From contig CP158635.1 in NCBI GenBank assembly GCA_050273025.1, positions 17,422,001 through 17,486,000 on the forward strand: DNA of 64,000 nucleotides. Reading direction: 5' to 3'. The number at the start of each line of letters is the position of its first letter. The stretch's first letter is position 1. Positions 1-57,988 of this stretch are shown here, piece after piece. A program made the position numbers and the translations under genes. The DNA is from Cenococcum geophilum. Its lineage: Eukaryota. The notes beneath the pieces are model-generated. The model searched no databases. It saw only the letters and a program-made list of their open reading frames with translations, and was not told the DNA's origin.

Positions 1-2710
1 GAGCTCGCAAAAGCTAAGATCGAGCTTCGCTTTACTGGAGGGTGGGTCCGGGACAAGCTGCTCGGCGTGGGCAGCCACGATATTGATGTTGCTATCAACA
101 AGATGACTGGCTTCCAATTCGGGCTAAAAATGAGAGAATACCTCGAGATCCCTGGAAATCCAGAGAAATACGGAATAGCCCCAGCCTCATCCAGTACTAA
201 AGCCAACGCGAATGGAAAGGGTAGAGACATCGGGCACGGTCTGTATAAGATTGAGGCAAACCCGGAGAAGTCAAAACACCTTGAAACAGTCACGACCAAA
301 ATTCTAGGCTTAGATATCGACCTTGTGAACCTTCGCAAAGAAACGTATACTGAAGACAGCCGTAACCCTCAGATGGAATTTGGAACGCCGGAGGAGGACG
401 CAATGAGGCGCGATGCCACTGTTAATGCCATGTTCTATAACCTTGAAACATGTGCTATCGAAGATTTCACGGGTCGTGGCTTCCAAGACATGCAACTAAA
501 GATTATTCGAACCCCTTTGGAACCATATCAAACATTCAAAGACGATCCTCTAAGAGTTTTGAGATTGATCCGATTTGCAAGTAGGCTGAACTACAGCATC
601 GACCCTGATACGGAGAATGCGATGGAAAACGAAGACATAAAAAGCGCCTTAAAATTAAAGATTAGTCGTGAGAGAGTTGGTATCGAGATAGAGAAGATGC
701 TCAAGGGACCAGACCCACACAGGGCTCTAGCGCTCATCGATCGGCTTGGTCTCTACGACACTATCTTCACAGACCCAACAAAAGAGATATCGTACAAGCC
801 CGATATTTCCTACATAAAACCCGCATATGACTGCGTTTTCGAGCTTTCGCGGTCTACCAGCGATCAAGAAACTCTCTCTGTAATATCATCAACCCTTCTC
901 AGAAACTTTGACGAGAAATATCTAGCCTGGATTGCCGCCGCATTGGTTCCATGGGCCGACGCTCCATTACCCAATCCTCCTAAAAAAGGCGGCAAAACAA
1001 CTTACACTGCCCAACTAGTCGCTCGCGAGGGTATCAAGGCCCCCAATAAGATCTCTGAAGTGATTACATCTTCAGTGGAACATTCCGAAAATATTCGAGC
1101 TTTGAAGGACCGATGCGTGACTCAGCTGAAATATCCACATCGACGACAGGAAGGTGAGGATGCCACAGCAAGAGACACACTAGGGATGGCAATCCGGCGC
1201 TGGGGTCAAACGTGGAGGAGCCAAGTTCTATTCTCCTTGTTATACGAGGTCTCGATTGGATCAATTCCAAAAGACAGTGAGTATTTGACCTTAAATGTAT
1301 TTCATTCGTTTCTAACCTCATCACGTAGCGGTTATTTCGTCTTATGCCACCTTCCTCTCTCAATTGGTCAAGCTTGACGTTCTCGAGGCGTACAAATATA
1401 AACCCTTAGTCACAGGCACAGAGTTAGCAAGCGCTCTCTCAACACCCCCAGGACCATGGATGAAAGATGCGCTGGAAGTGGTAATGGCCTGGCAACTCCG
1501 GTACCCCGAGGTTAAAGACCGAGCCGCTGCAATCGAAGCAGTGAAAGCACACAACGAGGCTAAACTCCAAGACGAGACTAAACGCGAGGAAAAGAATAGT
1601 GAGCTCCCTGCCCGTCTCGCCACTCATTTCTTGCAGCTTACCATCCGCCCTCTGTTCACCTCCTCACAGAAACAGTCTCATCCAAATCTCACGGCGGCGG
1701 GTCGTAAAGCCACACAACCCAAACCCCACAAAACGCTCAATTTCGATGAGTCCGTCAAAGAGCTTTGGAAGGATCCACACTATGGATGGGCCTTAGACCT
1801 CCTTCGTTGGGTACTTTGTACGCTAGACTCCAAAGGTGTTGAAACGAATTGGGGTCTCATAGTTCCGCCCATTCTAAGAATGCTTGATGACATAGAAACG
1901 GCGTGGAAAGCAGCGGGATGCGAATTACTGACAATGCTATTGAATATCACTCCACCTGCACTACTAGCAAAAACTGGGCTTGGAAATGTATTCGAGGAAG
2001 CACTCATGCCATGTTTAACCTATCTACCATCCTTAACCCCAGAAAACGAGTCCGTCATGCTACTAGACAAAACTTATCCGGCTTTACTGGCACTAGCGAA
2101 CGTTATGTTCCCTTCCCCCTCCGCTTCCACCACAATATCCACTCCCTCCCGATTCCCCACCACCAAGAAGGCAGAAGAGAACCCCCGAACGTACGAGAAA
2201 TTCCTCGACACGCTCCTACGCCAAGGCATCCTCGCCGGCTTTGCGCACGCAGGCGAGCACGTCCGCATCGCTGAGGTGCTGCTCAAGCACCTCATCCCGC
2301 TGCTCGAGGCCATGCAGATCAGCTCCGTCAAGCACCTCAAGCACGTCCTTCCCCTGCTCTCGAACGTGCTCGCCGAGCCGCTCGGCCCTGCCTATCCGCC
2401 GCTGCTGCGCGCGGCTGCGAAGGCGGTCCGGGTGGTGCAGCTGAATGCGTGGCCAAGGATCGCGGCGCATAGAGGAGAGGTGCTGCGGGGGGTTACGGTT
2501 TGTTGGATTAGGGTTTGTGAGCAGGGTCAGCGGGGAGGGCAGGAGGCGGCGGAGTTGGAGGCGGTGAAGCAGGAGCTCAGGACGTGCGTTGAGATGCTGG
2601 CGGCGGTGCTGAAGGAGGATCAGGATGTGGATCTGCAAAAGGAAGCTGCGATGTTGGTCGAGGCTGATGAGCGTCTGAGCGGGCTGCTTGAGGGATCGCC
2701 ATTGTTGTGA
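1..2710 (+). CDS. CCA1: CCA-adding tRNA nucleotidyltransferase (5' end outside window) fused in frame to a C-terminal Tti2-like domain; exons <1-1276 and 1329-2710
   Basis: Frame open from base 1: LRFTGGWVRDKLLGVGSHDIDVA, DLVNLRKETY, EDAMRRDATVNA, DDPLRVLRLIRFASR, SRERVGIE (class II nucleotidyltransferase motifs). A 52-nt intron at 1277-1328 (GTGAGT, CTAAC, TAG) joins to the 1364-2710 frame, giving the CCA tail (KPLVTGTEL..PGPWMKDALEVVMAWQL) and then Tti2-like WGLIVPPILRMLDD..TGLGNVFEEALMPCLTYLPSLTP..YPALLAL and NAWPRIAAHRGEVLRG. Confidence 0.9.
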
Positions 2711-3070: not shown

Positions 3071-5648
3071 CTAGTCCTCCAGCTCACCCAGCTTGCCCAT
3101 CAACAAAGCATCCACTTTCTCGCCCTTCTTCATGGAACCCTTCCCGGCCGGCATGCACAAAAGCGCATTCGCGCCCTTGAAACTCCCGATCCTCGAGCTG
3201 CGCTGTCCACCAGTGCTGCTAGCATACAGTAACCCGTCCTTCTTCGTAATAACCAAAGAGCGGTGATATTCCGGTCGTTGTGGATCCAATCGAATCTCGT
3301 CATCCAGCGTAACCTTGACTTGCGGTAAGCCAGCCGGCGTGATACCAGAGGCCTGATGCAGTGATGGGAGCACAAAAAGATGGAACGTCACAACAGCGGA
3401 AGCAGGGTTGCCAGGCAAAGAGAAGATTGCCTTTGTGACGTGCTCGCCCGCGCCGTCCTTCACGGGCACGGTGGCGAAGGTGGTGGGTTTGCCAGGCTTC
3501 ATGTTCACGCGGCCGAAGTGGATTGCACCACCGAGCGAGCGCTCGATGGTCGGTTTAAGCAGGTCCAGCTCGCCCATCGACACGCCGCCGCTGGTGATCA
3601 CGACGTCGACTTTGCGGAATGCATCGCGGAGTGTTTCTTCTAGAGCTCCGGGCCTGGGATTGGTTAGTTGTGATTAATAAGAGACGGGGAAGGGCTGGCT
3701 ACTTGTCTGATACGATACCGAGATCGACCGCTTGGAACCTGTGGCTCCGGACGGCTGTGATTAGTGTCGGTCTATTGGTATCTCGAACTTCTCCCAGTTT
3801 CAAGGGCCCGGGCCTGTCATGCGGAATAATTTCGTCGCCAGTGCTAAGCACGCCAACAACAGGTCTCCGGTAAGTCGCCAGTTCTGTGGTACCCACAGAA
3901 GCTAGGAGGCCGAATTCTCCTCCGATCACTGTAATCCCTTCTCCTTTCTTCATGATGAGATCACCGGCCTGGACATCACTGCCAATCTCTCTAACATTCT
4001 CGCCGCGCTTGATTTGGTCGGTGAGGATTTCTACCTCTTTCTCCTCCTTGTCATCATCGGTCTTAGTCTTGAGAACTGTGTCTTCTACCATAACCACTGC
4101 ATCTGCACCTGGAGGTAGTGGGGCTCCTGTCGTTATACGGGCTATCTGGCCTTCTTCTAGAGGCGCTATTTCTCCAGCTTGAGCGTGAGATACGAGAGCC
4201 ACTGGGTAAACGCCTTTTGGGAAACAGCCTGATTCTGGGAATTTCACCTGCCAGTCCGTAAGCTTTAATACAAACTTACTGTCACTGAGGTAACAGCTGG
4301 TAAGCCGTTTAGAAGTGAAAAATGAGAGCTTAGAGAAACACAGCAGTGGCATTGCGTAGGGGAAGCTTTTCGTTGGTACAACGTGACATGGTAGTGGAGA
4401 TATCCAAAATGCCTTGACAAAGACTTACCGCATAGCCATCAACGATGCTTGCACGAAAAGCTGGTACAGACTCCGCAGCTTTTACATCTTCCGCTAGCAC
4501 AGATCCACCCAGAGCCATGTCGACGGGTACTCTTTGGATATTTGGCTTAGGTGTATGCTCCGAGATGAGCTTCAATGCATCACTCACGGACAGCATGGGA
4601 TACGGAGACGACCGGTATCTGCGTGAAGGGCCCGCACTCGGGTCATTCGATTGCGGGCGAGATTCAGGATCTGTATGGGCCCTAGGACCTCCATGTCCAT
4701 GCCCATGACCGTGTCCATGGCTGTGACCATGGTGGTGGTGTGCTCCTGAAAATTGTATCAGTCTTTAACGAAATTCGCTATCATTTTAGACAATGCAAGA
4801 ACACTATCATCCTAAAATGGCTTAAATAAGCTCTTTTGAATGATAATTCCAAGAGATGGTTGGAGAAGAGAAATTTAACAGAATAGAAGTACCTTCTGAT
4901 TTTGATGATATCACAGACGCTGCACCGGATTGGACACCAGCATCTGCTTCCAGCTTCTTGACTCCTCCAACATGAATGGCACGCGAATCAGCACCAGCTG
5001 CTTGTATGCAAGCGTGTGGCAATAATTTGAGGACTGCCTCTAAATTCTCTTTGGCACCTTTGGGGGATCCGGGCAGCGTTAGTATTAGAGTCTTCTTCCG
5101 TACACCAGCAACAGGCCTCGACATAAGGGCAACTAGAAGCCATCAGCACGTCCACAGACCGAAGGGAAGGTAAAGAAACCATACATGGAGTAACTGATAA
5201 CGAGGCAGCTAGCATTCCATGACTGAGCAAGTATTAGGCTAATGAAGAGCTTAAAGTTGATTTAATCACAATACTCACACTAGCCCTGGTGCATGTCTGT
5301 GTATAAGGGGCAACACAGCCTTTTTGCTCTGCTGTTAGTCATATTTGATTTGAATGTAAGCAGATACAGCAGTTTTACCTCTGGGGTGCTATCTTTGACA
5401 GCGAACCCAGTGCCACCACTGCTAATGATTAGATTGACAGCATCCTCGCTATCCGTCCACCGCGTTACGAATCTCTGAATTTCAAGAACGTCGTCTGGAA
5501 TTATCTGCGTAACTGATACCTCCCATTGGTCATTCCCTACAGTTTCGAAGACATCTTGGAGAATTGCCGTGCATTTATCCGAAGAGGGATCTTGCGATGC
5601 AGTCTCCGAGACAATCAGTATGGCGGCTCTGAGCTTGCTGGTGTTCAT
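3071..5648 (-). CDS. cnxE: Gephyrin-like molybdenum cofactor biosynthesis protein (MogA/G domain + MoeA/E domain), multi-exon
   Basis: G domain: AAILIVSE, SSGGTGFAVKDSTPE, TLPGSPKGAKENL. His/Gly-rich linker at ~4690-4745. E domain: PAFRASIVDGYA, RITTGAPLPPGADAVVMVE, GVLSTGDE, TSGGVSMGE, MKPGKP, LPGNPASA, GGQRSSR. ATG at 5648, stop at 3071. Introns include 5378-5320 and 5278-5223; others not mapped to the base. Confidence 0.95.
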
Positions 5649-55623: not shown

Positions 55624-57988
55624 TCAAGCTTTCAAATTATCCAACTGGCCCGGGCATACATTCTCATTGACATCAGGAGGAACACCTATATCCCAATTAC
55701 TTTCAAACAAATTAAGAGCACCACCACTACATGCACCAGGATTATATCCAGTGTTGTACCACGCATTGATATCATTTGGCCAGCCATCAGAAGCATTCTC
55801 ATAGGCCGACCAATCACCGGCGACACCATTTGGACAAATAGCTGGCATTTGCCCACCAATAGGGTAAATACCTGTAAAGTAGGCAAAAGTGCATGTTCCA
55901 GGGGACCATATGTCGTTGGGGGTATCGGCGCCGAATTCGAAGTTCCACCAGACGCAATTGAAAATTCTAGTACAGGCATGGCAGCAGTCGAGTTTGCTAA
56001 CAGTAGTTATAGAAGGCGCAGTCGAAACGTTGTTCCCGGGCACTGCTGCAAGAGCTGGAGGAGGCGAAGGAAGGTTATATGCGAAGCTCGGCTCGCAATA
56101 CGCTGGGACGGTAGTTGACCCACCATTACCGTAAGTAGTGCAAGTGGAGGACTTAGAGTATATTGTCAGCATTCATCCAACAGATTGCGGAAGTCGCGTA
56201 CCAAAGTGGTTTCAGAGTAGAGGTATGTAGACACCAGGGCTCCCAACGATAACGTTATTCATAAGCTTATCGCGATAATATTAATAATAATAAGCGATAT
56301 GAATATAATATTTGCTTGTGAATATTCATAAGCTTATAAATATATATAGATATTTTAAAGCTTTAGTAGCAGTGTAAAAGAGTGGCTTATAGTAAAGGAT
56401 TCGCTAAGAACTATAGATACTCCGCGCGTTCTAATATATATCTATACATAGGTATATAGGGTGGGTGGTAATTTAGAAGAATTCTAAGTAATTTAATACT
56501 TTGCTAAGACTGGTTGTATAGCTTACATAAGATACTAATTATCGCGATATTATCGCGATAATGAATATCTTAGGGCTCTTAATGATATGAATACGATAAG
56601 TGGTATGAATATACATTCATTCATCATTGGGAGCCCTGGTAGACACGGTATGTGTAATTACGGTTGATGGGACGCAAGATGAGGGGTTATCTCTGGCCTC
56701 AACTAGATCATCCCGCTTATCCCTGGCCTCAATTGGAACATGTGGGCCATCTCCGGTCTTAATTGGCACATCCGGAGGCGTAGTTGGCTCTGGTATTACG
56801 GCGCGTTTATTATCTCCTGTGCATCCTGGTCCGATCCATCCATAACATCGAGGGCCTCCCGGGATCGTAGAAGGAGACGGTGTTGCACCATAGGTTATCG
56901 GTGTTTCTGAGGGAAAGACGGTCTGCAAATTGTATTGGTACTCTTCAGTGTATAGTACTGACGTCCACGGGGAGATTGTATTGATGGATGTCGACTGGAT
57001 ATCTGTTATCAGGGGTATTCTAAAATAACAAAGTGAACATACCGTATAAATGGTCGTAGTATAAGTCGAAATTCCAGAGTAGCACGGGGGAATCCAATAG
57101 GCAGCGTTGACTGCGTCGTTACTAGACGGGGGATTGACGGTACTTTTCAAGTAGCAGGGACCTGTAGGATATCCCCAATGCCAGGCGATAGCGATACAGC
57201 CTGGGGTTAAATCGCATGTTACCATACATTCAAATATACCAGTCGTCCAGACGGGACTCCCCATATCCCCTCCATAAAGGTCAGCGCCACACATGAGATG
57301 GTATTCTCTCCGATAATATGTTTCGTTCGCCCCGTTTTGATTTGGACAAATAGATGACCGAAATGCTCCCCATGACCCCGAAGCCGGTGTTAGGGACTGC
57401 GAATACGTGCTCTGAAGCGTACATGTGCCTCCTGGTAAGATAGTTCCTTCGCCCGGAGCAAAGTTGACGTAAGTGCAACCATTTAGAAAATTGGCCTCGC
57501 ACTCGTCAATGCAATCCTAAAACGTGGTTGTAATGACCTGGAATATAAAATCGCCCGCACGCTGCGAATCGCACTCAGTAACATAGCATGTGCCACCGTC
57601 GGGGACATCCAAGCATACACCATTAGATGCTGGACATTCTGGACCTTCGGCGCTAGGTAGATGGGCGGCCATCATACCGTTATACGCGACTGGAGCGTTA
57701 AGAGCGTTCTTCATATAGCAGCGGCCAGGAGAGCCGGGAATGTATGAAACATCTACACACACAGATGTAGTTGAGCAGAGTGCAACACTCCTCGAGAGTA
57801 TCTGTCCATCCTGGACTGCCGGGAATGTCCGCACCAGGACGATCGTATCCGCATTCGATCACGTACGTTAATTGGGAGGCCGGGTCAACATATGTCTGCT
57901 TGTTGTCGTTGGGGCACTTGAGCTGAGCAAGCGCGACATTCGTGAAACTTGATAAAGAAAGGAACACGAGGAAGACTGGTGAAATCAT
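55624..57988 (-). pseudogene. Secreted Cys-rich protein with PAN/apple-like repeats and a Thr/Pro-rich linker, disrupted
   Basis: Signal peptide MISPVFLVFLSLSSFTNVALA. Repeated C..D..G.D....C...C.....C..V.....C.LK modules. Lesions: frameshift at ~57785, in-frame TAG at 57517-57519, MITE at 56235-56638. Confidence 0.82.
56235..56638. mobile_element. hAT-type MITE (404 bp) in an exon of the PAN/apple gene
   Basis: TIR CAGGGCTCCCAAYGAT. 8-bp TSD GTAGACAC at 56227-56234 and 56639-56646. AT-rich interior with TATCGCGATA repeats. Confidence 0.92.

Follow-up and report, generated by a model that had tools for sequence, protein, structure and literature searches.

In-frame fusion of a CCA-adding enzyme to Tti2 across Dothideomycetes, with a conserved frame-shifting intron at the domain joint

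Introduction

In the model organisms studied, two essential functions are encoded by separate genes: the CCA-adding tRNA nucleotidyltransferase by CCA1/TRNT1, and a subunit of the Tel2-Tti1-Tti2 (TTT) co-chaperone of phosphatidylinositol 3-kinase-related kinases (PIKKs) by TTI2. Here we analyze a locus at the start of a 64,000-nucleotide (nt) stretch of the Cenococcum geophilum genome (CP158635.1, 17,422,001-17,486,000, forward strand; hereafter the window, to which all positions refer), where the two coding sequences lie in one open reading frame (ORF) with an alternative intron at their joint. The known eukaryotic class II CCA-adding enzymes, such as yeast Cca1, S. pombe cca1/cca2 and human TRNT1, share PF01743/PF12627, the motifs and the tail with the window. 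However, they end after the tail, whereas the frame of the window goes on into Tti2 unless the junction intron is removed. Yeast CCA1 uses alternative starts and thereby a choice of start codon, while the window has a C-terminal choice made by splicing; the two upstream ATGs of a 98%-identical locus (L002) recall the yeast starts.

Human TTI2 (7F4U, 7OLE and 9WJY) belongs to the same PF10521 family as the second half of the frame, for which an all-helical solenoid is likewise predicted. Human and free-standing fungal Tti2 have about 160-200 N-terminal residues that the fused Tti2 lacks, and, unlike known Tti2, the fused form has no start codon of its own and a complete enzyme in front of it. 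Retained coding introns are known as exitrons, and SKI7/HBS1 is a fungal gene that gives two proteins by alternative splicing. These resemble the window in having a GT..AG intron within coding sequence, both isoforms in RNA and different C-terminal parts, but the switch in the window separates two unrelated essential functions, and part of the second protein, a conserved structural helix, is encoded within its intron. The gene order and strand of the fusion also occur in Aspergillus section Nigri (P0307), Helicocarpus (P0289), Fusarium (P0323) and Teloschistes (P0496); unlike the window, these merged pairs keep a full Tti2, and relatives annotate Tti2 from its own Met (P0238 and P0227). A literature search for Tti2 with tRNA nucleotidyltransferase, CCA1 or Dothideomycetes found no paper in the library used. 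Both protein families, the type of splicing event and public two-domain models, mostly named for the enzyme, are known, and what is new is the splice switch at the joint.

Results and discussion

The window encodes a CCA-adding enzyme fused in frame to Tti2

The main coding exon of the enzyme (1-1276, + strand) lacks its 5' end, which lies beyond the window start. In a 98%-identical locus (L002) the frame is open further upstream, and about 47 codons back to the nearer ATG fall outside the window. Pfam profiles were run on the translations of 1-1275 and 1331-2707, the latter being referred to as the exon-2 protein. The first translation matched PF01743, the PolyA_pol head domain (E = 1.8e-22, 80.5 bits against a cut-off of 23), and PF12627, the adjoining RNA-binding domain (E = 1.7e-08, 34.5 bits against a cut-off of 22). 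It also contains a catalytic carboxylate motif (GGWVRD..DIDV) and an RRD motif (FTGGWVRDKLLGVGSHDIDVA and EEDAMRRDATVNA), GG.VRD...D.D and RRD being the motifs of class II tRNA nucleotidyltransferases. By its domains and motifs, the 5' part is a class II CCA-adding enzyme with predicted CCA addition activity.

The exon is followed by intron 1 (1277-1328, + strand, 52 nt, GTGAGT..TAG), which had been proposed by an earlier reading of the letters alone (the sequence-only reading) and is real: the joint 1276-1329 is carried by 37 raw RNA reads of run X19 and by one contig each in X1, X10 and X6, and the intron is spliced constitutively. Once it is removed, the frame is open from 1329 through the TGA at 2708-2710, so the stop-free passage from the CCA tail into Tti2 put forward by that reading is borne out. 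The fusion ORF spans 885 codons inside the window, or about 932 counted from the nearer ATG in L002.

The segment 1329-1598 (+ strand) encodes the C-terminal tail of the enzyme, with its PGPWMK..AWQLR motif region, and a charged linker of variable length. The A1 profile matched solved eukaryotic CCA-adding enzymes at residues 410-473 of 487 in 9ns4_A (E = 2.6e-12) and 424-486 of 502 in 9ns2_A (E = 1.6e-08); about 65 of the last residues of the solved enzymes are thus matched, and the C-terminal body/tail domain is complete. The linker corresponds to residues 71-90 of the exon-2 protein and has a low confidence in the AlphaFold2 (AF2) model (predicted local distance difference test, pLDDT, 60-67). 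In the alignment of fused proteins, its length varies between species from 0 to about 45 residues.

Behind the linker, the exon-2 protein matched PF10521 (Tti2) with E = 2.5e-74, scoring 250.8 bits where the cut-off is 25.2. Profile positions 33-278 of 279 are aligned with protein residues 88-353 (nt 1592-2389), and the first 32 profile positions have no match in the window. The A1 profile also matched residues 213-436 of human TTI2 (9wjy_B, E = 5.2e-07; 7f4u_C, E = 6.7e-07; 7ole_J, E = 3.9e-06), and the AF2 model of the exon-2 protein is all-helical with a mean pLDDT of 85.6. Searched as a single sequence against solved structures, the Tti2 part gave only a chance match (E = 0.45). The PF10521 match confirms the Tti2 identity of this half, which the sequence-only reading had assigned from motifs. 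The rest of the Tti2 core, an all-helical solenoid, occupies 1670-2710 (+ strand) in the fusion isoform and ends with the TGA. Four X19 reads part from the window at 2691-2710, ahead of the stop codon, with a loose end of about 13-19 letters, and the strain behind X19 probably has a different Tti2 C-terminal end.

The fusion is lineage-wide and its frame is under selection

We found 130 homologues longer than the exon-2 protein, of which 120 are listed (807-1009 residues), and the counts of fused proteins given here refer to these 120. PF01743 and PF10521 are both present in all of them. The named sources cover all major orders of Dothideomycetes, with the best match from Lophium mytilinum (60% identity), and the fusion is also found in Arthoniomycetes (Coniocarpon and Chrysothrix), Xylonomycetes (Xylona), Sareomycetes (Sarea) and Candelariomycetes (Pycnora). 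Only two names mention Tti2 (P0057 and P0120), most of the proteins being labelled as CCA or poly(A) polymerase proteins. The CCA-Tti2 fusion ORF is therefore true and lineage-wide, and the suspicion that it lay hidden under CCA-only annotations was well founded.

At the DNA level, one scan of metagenome contigs yielded 80 related loci, which make 81 sources together with the window. An anchor in the CCA tail and an anchor in the Tti2 core were both found in 77 of the 81. The anchors share one frame with no stop between them in 74 of these 77 sources, although spacer length differs, with 15 values from 42 to 78 codons; the remaining three are spliced, cDNA-like contigs. A frame kept open without stops across spacers of 15 lengths is not due to chance, and the frame is thus under selection.

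These data also bear on a possible assembly or gene-model artefact, in which two neighbouring genes would be read as one. Gene predictors do produce such mergers: some Aspergillus, Helicocarpus, Fusarium and Teloschistes models join the CCA-adding enzyme to a full Tti2 that relatives annotate apart. However, the ORF is continuous in the raw DNA of the window and of 74 related sequences, independently of any gene model, and RNA contigs and reads cover the joint. An artefact is refuted for this lineage, and we give it virtually no credence.

In the stretch that separates the CCA tail from the Tti2 core, no alignment column has Met in more than 50 of the 120 listed fused proteins, indicating that a separate Tti2 start is not conserved. 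In the frame without intron 1, the in-frame Met codons of the window are residues 470 and 478 (nt 1484) and then residue 610 (nt 1880). The gap between 1484 and 1880 is exactly as previously claimed, and the alignment agrees with the argument then drawn from it, that a separate start at the junction is unlikely. The ATG at 1880 corresponds to Met in only 50 of the 120 proteins and lies 95 codons inside the Tti2 domain.

The N-terminal domain of free-standing Tti2 is missing from the fusion

The fused Tti2 is not a full-length Tti2, as it lacks the N-terminal domain of about 190 residues that is present in free-standing Tti2. For the free-standing proteins of Letharia, Lambiella, Emmonsiellopsis and Emmonsia (P0212, P0221, P0227 and P0238; 530-615 residues), alignment with the window begins no earlier than their residues 172-200. 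Library matches fall into two types: those that start at query residue 1-5 are of the fused type or ORF fragments, and those that start at residue 93-103 are preceded by an N-terminal stretch of about 170-217 residues.

Besides these four, nine named free-standing Tti2 proteins were found, in Lecanoromycetes, Coniocybomycetes, Sordariomycetes and Leotiomycetes; no Dothideomycetes protein is among them. All 13 named free-standing proteins belong to Lecanoromycetes, Eurotiomycetes, Sordariomycetes, Leotiomycetes or Coniocybomycetes, and none to the fusion-bearing classes. What was seen is consistent with the absence of a stand-alone TTI2 from the fungi that carry the fusion.

Models that join the CCA-adding enzyme to a complete Tti2 (Pfam positions 1-279) occur in uniseriate black Aspergilli (P0307 and P0373-P0375), Helicocarpus (P0289), Fusarium (P0323) and Teloschistes (P0496). 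In the Helicocarpus model, the CCA tail is joined to residue 10 of the Emmonsia Tti2. These models may be read-through transcripts or the product of annotation merging; in either case they place CCA1 and TTI2 next to each other, on the same strand, far beyond Dothideomycetes, which suggests an old CCA1-TTI2 neighbourhood in filamentous ascomycetes. A deletion between the neighbouring genes, taking the stop codon of the enzyme together with the N-terminal domain of Tti2, could then have produced the fusion. Given the patchy distribution over classes, there may have been one origin of the fusion or more.

If the fused Tti2 works as such, a Tti2 without its N-terminal domain can suffice, and one may ask whether the enzyme moiety plays any part in the TTT complex. 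One may speculate that the body of the CCA-adding enzyme took the structural place of the lost N-terminal domain in Tel2-Tti1-Tti2, and that the efficiency of the weak intron at the joint, described below, sets the dose of PIKK folding against tRNA maturation. We see only a small chance that this is so. If true, these fungi would have as their only Tti2 one that is physically part of a tRNA 3'-end enzyme, and this would hard-wire translation capacity to the biogenesis of growth kinases (TOR, ATR and Tra1) in a class rich in crop pathogens.

The intron at the joint is found both spliced and retained

RNA contigs of X1, X10 and X6 contain a joint 1598-1670 that skips 71 nt with GT..AG ends, beside an unspliced branch. 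This second, alternative intron (1599-1669, + strand, GTGAGC..CACAG) is the only place where the contig graph forks, between a 131-letter retained branch and a 60-letter spliced branch, and both forms were translated in silico. The retained branch has depths of 122.6, 151 and 99 in X1, X10 and X6, respectively, and the spliced branch has depths of 90, 100.2 and 57.5. Retention thus accounts for about 58-63% of the bubble depth in the three runs and splicing for about 37-42%, contig depth being a poor measure of isoform levels. The same contigs have no retained branch at intron 1. Since intron 1 appears only spliced, neither genomic DNA nor bulk pre-mRNA explains the retention of intron 2.

Run X19 consists of raw stranded RNA reads from a strain 95-99% similar to the window, with a 95% likeness limit on reads. 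No joint at 1598 reached the listing threshold in this run, in which 16-18 reads lie over 1585-1597 and the mean depth over 1601-1700 is 9; retention seems to dominate there. Pile-ups of X19 read starts at 1501 and 2400, together with bins of zero depth, were considered as transcript ends and rejected, being attributed to diverged stretches below the 95% limit.

As 71 is not a multiple of three, splicing of intron 2 shifts the frame. When it is removed, a CCA-only protein results, with 12 further codons before a TAA stop at 1705-1707; this frame-shifted tail and its stop occupy 1670-1707 (+ strand). When it is kept, the 71 nt encode the first Tti2 helix, S90-Q113 of the exon-2 protein, and the fusion is read on. 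The AF2 model has a confident helix at residues 91-114 (pLDDT about 91), which is the stretch encoded by the alternative intron, and residues L92, L96, H99, F100, L101, T104, R106, P107 and F109 of the helix are invariant or nearly so. Intron 2 is a retained coding intron, with canonical splice sites inside the ORF and both forms in RNA, and the locus encodes a CCA-only protein as well as the fusion. The sequence-only reading had mentioned separation by alternative transcripts as a side option, and this is what the conserved frame-shifting intron provides, being spliced in some transcripts and retained in others. The truncation of Tti2 and the encoding of its first helix within the alternative intron go beyond that reading.

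Splice signals are conserved at synonymous sites

All 77 related loci with a tblastn match spanning the joint have the same 5' splice site as the window, GTGAGCT (1599-1605, + strand), with the in-frame reading nGT GAG CTn. At the protein level, E-L at this site is preceded by S, G, C or R in 118 of the 120 listed fused proteins, and these four are exactly the residues encoded by NGT. For counts at synonymous sites we used 63 distinct junctions, which were picked by a pattern containing the donor, so that the tblastn count of 77 is the unbiased one. Among these junctions the donor codons are GGT for Gly (45/45), AGT for Ser (18/18) and GAG for Glu (63/63). By comparison, the Gly of the PGPW motif, 50 codons upstream, is encoded by GGC (22), GGA (18), GGT (15) and GGG (7), and a conserved Lys by AAA (34) and AAG (28).

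Within the intron, codons 13-14 are CTT in 62 and ACC in 58 of the 63 relatives, with a G before them, giving GCTTACC (1636-1642, + strand; A at 1640). The fungal branch-point consensus is CTRAY. GCTTACC, which is conserved at synonymous sites, is a putative branch site that departs from this consensus, and such a site would fit inefficient splicing. The 3' splice site of intron 2 in the window is CACAG (1665-1669, + strand), as defined by the RNA joint. AAG or CAG is found at +65 nt in 58 of the 63 distinct relatives, 6 nt earlier than the acceptor of the window, whose clade uses +71. All candidate intron lengths equal 2 modulo 3, and a stop follows 1-28 codons downstream; in a shifted frame, chance alone would give one within about 20 codons. 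Across the class, these alignments show synonymous-site conservation of the donor, of the motif resembling a branch point and of the acceptor. Selection appears to act on both readings, since this stretch is conserved in its amino acid sequence as well.

Spliced and CCA-only forms occur in relatives

Three related loci have no tblastn match spanning the joint: L072 (Aureobasidium-like), L076 (Alternaria-like) and L080 (from the species of L064-L067). In all three, exactly the predicted 65 nt are absent, and the CCA frame stops either immediately or no more than 11 codons on. Intron 1 is likewise missing from L076 and L080, which identifies these two as cDNA. The loci L064-L067 were considered as fusion mRNA of a relative and rejected, as they keep intron 1 and so look genomic.

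CCA-only ORFs with the predicted shifted tails are found as well (P0376, P0377, P0378, P0384 and P0386). P0376 has 572 residues, is 96% identical and comprises 45 member sequences; together with P0377 and P0378, also from close relatives, it ends with a shifted tail of the window type. Two NCBI models, from Coniothyrium glycines (P0406) and Ascochyta lentis (P0433), are likewise CCA-only with the predicted shifted tail. Two fused models, P0120 (Elsinoe fawcettii) and P0076, omit the first Tti2 helix wholly or partly, the skipped stretch running from the conserved donor to a later acceptor in frame; both look as if the gene predictor had compromised at the alternative intron.

The spliced form could also be a regulatory dead end, with a premature stop and a long 3' untranslated region (UTR) leading to decay, in which case the fusion would supply both the CCA and the Tti2 activity. 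Long 3' UTRs can trigger decay in fungi, and about 1 kb of former coding sequence follows the stop at 1705-1707. However, the spliced form makes up about two fifths of the bubble depth in three runs and has been assembled as cDNA in three other lineages. Complete CCA-only ORFs exist, with as many as 45 member sequences, and the early stop past the acceptor is kept in all lineages. We therefore regard a dead end as quite improbable.

A model for one locus with two products

We propose a model in which a small frame-shifting intron, placed exactly at the domain joint and only partially retained, lets one locus make two products. Transcripts without intron 1 either lack intron 2 as well or keep it. 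The spliced message would supply the bulk of the stand-alone CCA-adding enzyme, and the retained message would give a fused polypeptide of about 105 kDa that serves as the Tti2 source of the cell for the Tel2-Tti1-Tti2 co-chaperone. The non-consensus branch site may keep splicing partial and thereby set the ratio of the two products. We propose the fusion as the Tti2 source because no internal start is conserved and because these classes yielded no free-standing Tti2. We consider it likely that the retained form is translated into the fusion and is the Tti2 of the cell, that the spliced form is the CCA-adding enzyme, and that partial splicing sets their ratio.

Several points weigh against this model. 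Its support lies at the RNA and DNA level, and the behaviour of the proteins is what we infer from it. X1 and X10 are labelled metatranscriptomic, the RNA nature of X6 is a guess, and all three may share a sequencing campaign with the source genome; their contigs break at the bubble, so that the full length of the fusion, from the first codon of the enzyme to the Tti2 stop, is in no single record that retains intron 2. Likewise, none of the 80 related loci is a cDNA-like contig with intron 1 spliced and intron 2 retained. The bubble ratio is also only a rough guide to isoform levels, for the reason given above, and a CCA-only message with a 3' UTR of about 1 kb might be unstable. In X19 the depth reaches about 100 over the Tti2 part as compared with about 5-56 over the CCA part, which could be due to 3' bias, uneven divergence or an extra internal transcript. 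As our view is limited to the window, a second TTI2 or CCA gene may lie elsewhere in the source genome. Finally, a Foldseek search of the AF2 model against the PDB gave no match at E <= 0.001, the nearest being generic ARM/HEAT solenoids at about 5e-03.

The depth imbalance in X19 would also be expected if Tti2 were made alone, from an internal promoter or a non-AUG start, with the in-frame junction being incidental, and one clade (7 of the 63 junctions) has an ATG two codons ahead of the donor. Against this stand the lack of a conserved Met, the poor conservation and late position of the ATG at 1880, and the frame itself, whose stop-free preservation over 15 spacer lengths in all 74 unspliced sources is unexpected for an incidental junction. 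An independent Tti2 product is thus very unlikely in our judgement.

Another possibility is that the fusion is translated and then cut in the linker, so that a free CCA-adding enzyme and a free Tti2 core do the work and the splice switch only tunes the dose of Tti2. A linker of such low model confidence and variable length could be open to proteases, but the linker alignment contains no conserved cleavage motif, and we think it unlikely that cleavage is the rule.

A whole fungal class and several allied classes appear to be without any Tti2 start codon: Tti2 would be readable only as the C-terminal half of a CCA-adding enzyme, and only from messages that keep an intron of 65-71 nt. The locus would be a clear and testable case in which one splice decision picks between two unrelated essential products, of relevance to both tRNA and PIKK biologists. 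Well over a hundred public gene models, named as nucleotidyltransferase only, need re-annotation in view of the fusion.

Alternative N-termini and the neighbourhood of the locus

In L002, two in-frame ATGs lie ahead of the CCA domain within 790-1170. The ORFs P0377 and P0378 begin at the upstream ATG, and their extension of 80 residues, with much Ser, Leu and Arg, is probably a mitochondrial presequence; P0376 begins at the second. From the two ATGs in L002 and the extension in P0377, the gene probably has alternative N-termini too.

A convergent neighbour at 3071-4424 (- strand) encodes a molybdopterin molybdenumtransferase of the MoeA/gephyrin type (PF03453, PF00994 and PF03454). RNA contigs over the Tti2 3' end extend about 2 kb into this gene, so the 3' ends of the two transcripts may overlap. 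Further downstream, 20001-52000 is AT-rich, with a GC content of 0.30-0.39 as compared with 0.47-0.55 around the gene, and has almost no long ORFs; it looks like a repeat-degraded AT isochore. Only seven ORFs of at least 220 residues overlap 2700-64000. One ORF of 299 residues (56620-57516, - strand) has weak PAN-domain matches, to PF14295 with 23 bits, below the cut-off of 27, and to PF00024 with 22.1 bits against a cut-off of 21.4.

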